From Escherichia coli (GTDB taxonomy: Bacteria > Pseudomonadota > Gammaproteobacteria > Enterobacterales > Enterobacteriaceae): 64,000 nucleotides of DNA. Position 1 is the stretch's first letter. Each line of letters starts with the position of its first letter. Location of the stretch: the NCBI RefSeq assembly GCF_003334335.1, contig NZ_QOWQ01000001.1; one strand, given 5' to 3'. Under the pieces are notes generated by a model. The model did no database searches. It saw nothing but the letters and a program-made list of their open reading frames with translations, and was not told the DNA's origin. The translations under genes were made by a program, and so were the position numbers. Shown here in pieces: positions 3,529-3,887 of the stretch.

Positions 3529-3529
3529 T

Positions 3530-3558
3530 AAAAAGGCGCTGAATGGCGCTTTTTTATG
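3530..3558 (+). terminator. Rho-independent terminator downstream of amiC
   Basis: aaaaaggcgctgaatggcgcttttttat: GC stem (ggcgc/gcgcc) followed by a T-run directly after the amiC stop. Confidence 0.6.
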
Positions 3559-3601
3559 GGAGACCAGAAACAAAAAAACACCCGTTAGGGTGTTCAATAA
3601 T

Positions 3602-3678
3602 TGGTTGCGGGGGCCGGATTTGAACCGACGACCTTCGGGTTATGAGCCCGACGAGCTACCAGGCTGCTCCACCCCGCG
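3602..3678 (-). tRNA. metZ: Initiator tRNA-fMet (anticodon CAU), single copy
   Basis: Reverse complement reads CGCGGGGTGGAGCAGCCTGGTAGCTCGTCGGGCTCATAACCCGAAGGTCGTCGGTTCAAATCCGGCCCCCGCAACCA, 77 nt, CAU anticodon, encoded CCA end. Confidence 0.9.
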
Positions 3679-3887
3679 TCCGTGGATGCGCACTATACTC
3701 CGCTCGCGTTTTCATGCAACCTTTTTTTTACCCCGATCACGGATTTGGCATGATTTTGAACAAAAACAAATCACTAAAGCCTATTTTTTGTGCAAAATTT
3801 GCGTCAGGGAGAGGCTGCTCATTTCATTAAACGCGGCGGTTTGTTATCTTCGTTGCGCCTTATTTTTTAACCTGAAGAAGAGAACAA

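Follow-up and report, generated by a model that had tools for sequence, protein, structure and literature searches.

Whether the number of initiator tRNA genes read from an Escherichia coli genome assembly reflects the living strain is the question raised by the locus between amiC and mltA. The window, i.e., the whole stretch of 64,000 nucleotides that was analyzed, carries exactly one 77-nt tRNA-fMet gene on the minus strand between these two genes. The earlier note had claimed this from the letters alone, and ARAGORN and Rfam agree (3602 to 3678). It had also stated that K-12 has three tandem copies, and the annotation of MG1655 bears this out, with metZ, metW, and metV located between mltA and amiC. 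The two explanations that it offered, a contracted array in the strain or an assembly collapse of identical repeats, are both documented and both live, and the sequence alone is unable to tell them apart. Taking the evidence together, we favor the reading that the copy count of one is an assembly artifact of a short-read assembler that merged identical repeats, with a probability of roughly 0.57.

The initiator tRNA gene and its flanks

The sole tRNA of the whole 64-kb window is a tRNA-Met with the anticodon CAT at position 35 (3602 to 3678, minus strand; ARAGORN), and the Rfam tRNA match at 3605 to 3678 scored 61.4 bits (E = 1.7e-12). The gene (CGCGGGGTGGAGCAGCCTGGTAGCTCGTCGGGCTCATAACCCGAAGGTCGTCGGTTCAAATCCGGCCCCCGCAACCA) belongs to the metZ/W/V type, encodes its CCA end, and is 100% identical to K-12 metZ, metW, and metV. 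The first and last acceptor pair is nonstandard in the Rfam alignment, namely a C1xA72 mismatch, and direct reading of the acceptor strands gives CGCGGGG...CCCCGCA-ACCA. The anticodon arm UCGGG-CUCAUAA-CCCGA contains three consecutive G-C pairs (GGG/CCC) in both the Rfam alignment and the sequence reading, a conserved hallmark of initiators according to PMC3017606. The features that define an initiator tRNA, i.e., the CAU anticodon, the unpaired C1/A72, and the three G-C pairs of the anticodon stem, are accordingly present in the sequence. Position 46 in the variable loop AAGGUCG is a G, which denotes the tRNA-fMet1 isoform versus A46 in K-12 metY (bioRxiv 10.64898/2026.04.16.719103). Charging with methionine, formylation, and use in the P site would be expected from the complete identity to the three K-12 genes. 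To judge by its sequence, the window gene appears to be an ordinary, intact, and functional initiator tRNA gene in a normal transcription unit.

The left flank is formed by amiC (2275 to 3528, plus strand), which is annotated at the same coordinates in the collinear genome BR1220 and ends with the stop codon TGA at 3526 to 3528. The program-made open reading frame (2185 to 3528; 447 amino acids) begins with an ATG at 2185 and is thereby 90 nt longer at its 5' end than the annotated gene, which starts at 2275 (417 amino acids). The right flank is mltA (3887 to 4984, plus strand), divergent from the tRNA gene and again annotated at identical coordinates in BR1220, with its ATG confirmed at 3887 to 3889. 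The earlier note had given the length of the intergenic region as 359 bp; the region extends from 3529 to 3886 and measures 358 bp, the right end having been off by one.

The region upstream of the tRNA gene (3679 to 3886, minus strand), which would comprise the promoter and a short leader within the divergent intergenic region shared with mltA, is base-for-base that of K-12 metZ. Direct reading reveals the hexamers TTGCAT (3714 to 3719) and TATAGT (3692 to 3697), spaced by 16 nt and followed by the G+C-rich discriminator GCGCATCC. The consensus scan called no promoter upstream of the window tRNA gene, and the first hexamer matches at only three of six positions. From the identity of the upstream 208 bp, the K-12 promoter would apply to the window gene as well. 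An intrinsic terminator of the tRNA transcript, called by the scan as a terminator-like site, is located at 3576 to 3595 (minus strand; GAACACCC-TAAC-GGGTGTTT and then a T-run), and the sequence after the window tRNA gene is identical to the terminator after K-12 metV. A GCGC hairpin with a T-run lies directly behind the amiC stop codon (3530 to 3555, plus strand; AAAAAGGCGCTGAATGGCGCTTTTTT in direct reading) and probably represents the amiC terminator; the terminator scan did not call it. Below its threshold, Rfam also matched Aggregatibacter sRNA 82 (3528 to 3604, plus strand; 23.7 bits versus a gathering score of 51.4, E = 0.84); this match merely spans the back-to-back hairpins of the amiC and tRNA terminators and is almost certainly due to chance. 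An island at the 3' end of the tRNA-fMet gene, with foreign genes and a partial tRNA repeat, is absent from the window, where the K-12 terminator flank runs straight into amiC.

The array of K-12 MG1655 consists of three genes of 77 nt each, separated by spacers of 33 nt. In a three-way alignment, the window corresponds to K-12 minus exactly 220 bp, i.e., two 110-bp repeat units, without a scar and with identical flanks, and all remaining intergenic columns are identical between the two. Both 33-nt spacers of the K-12-type array, ATTAAAATTTGATGAAGTAAAGCAGTACGGTGA and ATCAAATTTGATGAAGTAAAAGCAGTACGGTGA, are missing from the window. The loss of whole units without a junction scar fits an assembly collapse, but real recombination has the identical outcome, and the junction therefore does not discriminate between them. 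A genuine deletion in vivo, in which two units were lost by replication slippage or by unequal homologous recombination between the identical genes of 77 bp, leaving one gene plus metY, is the principal competitor of the collapse; we regard it as a serious possibility that falls short of an even chance.

Positions 1 to 3680 of the window are 100% identical to K-12, and the remaining 60 kb differ from it by 85 substitutions, mostly at 60.3 to 63.7 kb, and one single-base indel. The absence of any further indel speaks against a collapse insofar as the assembly is otherwise clean. By this comparison, the window stems from a strain that is near-identical to K-12 over 64 kb, but not from K-12 itself, and this strain presumably belongs to phylogroup A. 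About 70 of the 85 substitutions are concentrated in approximately 3.4 kb (60327 to 63696, cysJ-cysI-cysH), versus 16 in the other 56 kb, and this cluster has the appearance of a recombination tract. Adjacent to a hok/sok-type gene, at 63753, the homology to K-12 stops. A CRISPR repeat array (46658 to 47052, annotated in the collinear BR1220) is located between queE and ygcE; it has no indel relative to K-12, and its number of units is therefore the same.

Copy number in complete genomes

The census of the locus covered 5,426 complete E. coli genomes, and each query placed n gene copies between two flanks of 100 nt, with E-value limits set such that nothing short of a full-length alignment was accepted. 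Counting by a coverage of ≥80% had been ambiguous, as overlapping BLAST pieces were sometimes joined, and very low E-value cutoffs were used instead. At least 109 of the 5,426 genomes (2.0%) have one copy between amiC and mltA, and at least 116 have two; together, these counts are consistent with the 226 obtained by two coverage-based tests. Both strict counts are lower bounds, as the array is separated from amiC by other DNA in many genomes, and approximately 200 genomes for which a flank-free test gave fewer than three tandem copies fall outside the two classes. Three or more copies were found by the flank-free test in 5,001 of the 5,426 genomes (over 90%), in identity bands from 97.8% to 100%. 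A strict three-copy count of 3,236 was dropped as a census figure because it is an undercount caused by differing sequences on the amiC side, e.g., islands; the difference between the flank-free and the strict count indicates that about 1,700 genomes with three or more copies lack the K-12-type flank on this side. The one-copy state at this locus is, as such, already known, recurrent, and ordinary.

It is exceedingly improbable that the lineage of the window never gained the triplication and has retained an ancestral single copy. The bare presence of one copy agrees with such a history but is nothing specific, whereas three or more copies prevail in about 5,000 of the 5,426 genomes across the identity bands given above, and the flanks of the window are base-identical to those of the three-copy K-12. 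Furthermore, the single-copy records, with flank identities of 98.2% to 100%, are dispersed over many lineages rather than grouped in a single clade.

A genuine deletion does find support in the census. Four or more copies are present in 66 of the 5,426 genomes, a state that cannot arise by collapse and thus documents real recombination at the array; among them are XL10-Gold, which derives from K-12, and strain HS, in two assemblies that are independent of each other. The designation "five or more copies" was given up for rows without the amiC-side flank, which could equally represent four-copy arrays beside an island, and they were recorded as "four or more." The two-copy state is common to O6:H16 enterotoxigenic E. 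coli genomes that were deposited under several different accession series. The array is also known to contract in the laboratory: when a genome-reduced K-12 underwent adaptive evolution, one or two of the three fMet tRNA genes disappeared "through homologous recombination" in three of five independently evolved lines, namely two genes in delta-37c13 and delta-37c145 and one gene in delta-37c146 (Front Microbiol 2023, PMC10249474), which are the same 3-to-1 and 3-to-2 changes. The level of tRNA-fMet follows gene copy number, and a metZWV deletion is viable, though cold-sensitive (PMC3017606). Finally, at least two tRNA-fMet matches were retained in all 5,426 genomes, so that metY is always available.

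Other structures at the locus were encountered in individual genomes. In NZ_CP008697.1 (ST648; L009, 19889 to 25117), a five-gene cluster absent from both the window and K-12 is located between mltA and amiC; it encodes a PRD-domain regulator, a PTS EIIC component, a frameshifted MalY/PatB protein, a KpsF/GutQ isomerase, and a phosphoglycerate dehydrogenase. Strain CH458 (NZ_CM166355.1; L025, approximately 4345 to 7432) harbors a type VI secretion island with, among others, a MucR-family regulator, VasL, TssE, and TssJ. The island starts directly after the amiC terminator and a leftover of 14 nt from the 3' end of the tRNA-fMet gene, which suggests an integration at the last gene of the array. 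Strain IH5 (NZ_CP168269.1; L005, 2501 to 2577) carries, upstream of rimP-nusA-infB, a metY gene with 100% identity to the metZWV type, including G46, unlike K-12 metY. This genome yielded no more than three separate matches of tRNA length and lacked a K-12-like spacer, indicating an unusual structure of its metZWV locus.

Control arrays and traces of assembly collapse

As controls, single-copy versions were built for two other tandem arrays of K-12, glyVXY and leuQPV. The K-12 glyVXY array (3 x 76 nt, spacers of 35 to 36 nt) matches metZWV in its architecture and is single-copy in just 15 of the 5,426 genomes. The single-copy state is thus seven times more common at metZWV (109 versus 15), in line with genuine deletions at metZWV. 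From this control alone, most single-copy records had been taken as real, an interpretation that was overturned by the co-collapse of leuQPV in the same project series. Five of the 15 genomes with a single-copy glyVXY array are also single-copy at metZWV, versus 0.3 expected (P = 8e-6). The leuQPV array is single-copy in 425 of the 5,426 genomes (7.8%), more often than metZWV (109) or glyVXY (15), and among the matches listed, i.e., the first 60 of the 425, 19 are also single-copy at metZWV, versus 1.2 expected (P = 1e-18). This overlap includes five genomes of the GF series (leuQPV) and the K-12 strains ME8067, MC1061, and OV2, which are collapsed at two or three arrays. Independent real deletions at unrelated arrays would not co-occur in this way, whereas a property of the assembly would do so: co-occurrence across tRNA arrays is the signature of assembly collapse and argues against a genuine deletion. 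On the other side of the balance, at least 66 of the 87 named single-copy records are absent from the single-copy matches listed for the other arrays, which speaks for real deletions and against a general collapse.

A single leuQPV copy is common to whole strain series (Ec-050, AVS, 2020S05-013), and some of these cases may therefore be genuine and specific to a lineage. The serV-arg array of BR1220 (NZ_CP093068.1; L011, 7656 to 8242) contains three tRNA-Arg genes; the corresponding K-12 array presumably has four, i.e., argV, argY, argZ, and argQ.

The distribution of the single-copy records points in the same direction as the controls. They cluster by sequencing project, with at least 11 "GF" genomes from chicken meat, at least nine of the WP-ESBL series, at least six with accession numbers of the range CP0672xx-CP0673xx, and at least five of the TUM series, and they include K-12 derivatives of a three-copy parent, i.e., J53, ME8067, C3026, MC1061, OV2, and MG1655p. 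Near-clonal records of the O104:H4 outbreak disagree in copy number, as a single copy is present in 2011C-3493, whose glyVXY array is likewise single-copy, and two copies are present in HUSEC2011, which is difficult to reconcile with a genuine deletion. A more drastic case is provided by NZ_CP008697.1 (ST648), a RefSeq "complete" genome, in which the metZ upstream region ends with ...CATCCACGG (L009, approximately 19790 to 19830), followed by one N and unrelated sequence. ARAGORN detected no tRNA between mltA and amiC in this record, which has thus lost its entire initiator tRNA array at a junction of the assembly.

With respect to the source of the window, no exact match exists among the complete E. 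coli genomes, and the best matches have at least three mismatches per 25 kb. The closest single-copy complete record, BR1220, is collinear with the whole window and differs by 15 SNPs and no indel. Its closeness was rejected as evidence of inheritance, given that the distance to K-12 is about the same over the first 60 kb. By way of the rare variants RelA A242T and YgcU V54I, DNA with 100% identity to the window was traced, and it was recovered only in short-read material, i.e., in GCA_012531195.1 and in Logan contigs of SRR1815430, the latter over at least 13.7 kb. The 60,327-bp contig DABAWV010000032.1 of GCA_012531195.1 is 100% identical where comparable and spans the window, by coordinate arithmetic, from about 3592 to about 63918, so that one of its ends lies approximately 10 nt past the 3' end of the tRNA gene. 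The other end is found just after the hok-like gene; both ends are inside the window, whose assembly has accordingly bridged two breaks. That the sister contig stops at the tRNA gene, where the window assembly runs through, fits a repeat that was left unresolved in one assembly and traversed once in the other, although the break could instead be due to the unlinked metY copy and not to a multicopy array. The confinement of the lineage to short-read assemblies, one of which breaks at this very tRNA, likewise weakens the case for a deletion in vivo, as does the absence, among the complete genomes, of any member of this lineage in which the state could be seen as inherited.

In the favored interpretation, i.e., assembly collapse, the locus would be an intact K-12-type metZWV transcription unit that is displayed with one gene instead of three. 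The tRNA would be transcribed on the minus strand from the K-12-identical upstream region, and transcription would end at the hairpin at 3576 to 3595. Two 110-bp units between the identical 77-bp genes were removed exactly and most likely in silico, when the short-read assembler presumably went only once through a repeat that it failed to resolve. In the living strain, the customary three copies are probably still present. The anatomy of the locus, its identity to K-12, the rarity of the one-copy state, and the frequency of such collapses in public records are established; for this particular assembly, the in silico collapse is what we infer from the behavior of comparable records and of the sister contig.

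Implications and comparison with known systems

The biological weight of the observation is small, as the gene encodes what appears to be an ordinary initiator tRNA and contractions of the array have already been published. Its practical message is one of caution: where tRNA genes lie in tandem arrays, their number in an assembly is not reliable, and this extends to genomes that RefSeq lists as "complete." About 2% of the records are one-copy and about 2% are two-copy at this locus, and both states tend to be found together with single-copy glyVXY and leuQPV. Were the single copy genuine, initiator tRNA in the strain would be at about half of the usual amount, with two genes in total versus four, because the level of tRNA-fMet tracks gene number (PMC3017606). 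Published work ties a drop in initiator tRNA to lower initiation fidelity, to cold sensitivity upon full deletion, and to better competitive fitness in poor media. A lower number of initiator tRNA genes is described as a cost in rich media and as a benefit in poor ones (Samhita 2014, as summarized in PMC9981150). A further-reaching proposal is that the single copy is real and represents one case of a recurrent, selectively favored reduction of initiator tRNA dosage in natural E. coli, with a few percent of wild and laboratory strains having independently shed metZWV copies, and fewer having gained copies, in adaptation to niches that are poor in nutrients or permit only slow growth. We consider this unlikely; if true, the array would serve as a natural tuning knob for translation initiation.

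Compared with the metZWV operon of K-12 MG1655, the locus of the window agrees in its position between amiC and mltA, the strand relation, the upstream 208 bp, the tRNA, the terminator, and the downstream flank, and differs in having one gene rather than three, in lacking both 33-nt spacers, and in the resulting net difference of -220 bp. The single-copy complete records, e.g., BR1220, J53, MC1061, and O104:H4 2011C-3493, have the identical configuration, many with 277 of 277 bases, but none of them is the source genome, and several are collapsed at other arrays, too. The evolved delta-37 lines (PMC10249474) share with the window the same locus and the same three-to-one outcome; unlike the window, which is known from an assembly alone, they are laboratory lines with a known three-copy parent that were resequenced.

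In Salmonella, metZ-metW is said to have been amplified in compensation for formylation defects (reportedly Nilsson et al. 2006, PNAS 103:6976). This amplification is a gain rather than a loss and occurred in another species, but it concerns the same tandem array, whose copy number shifts by recombination between the repeats with effects on fitness.
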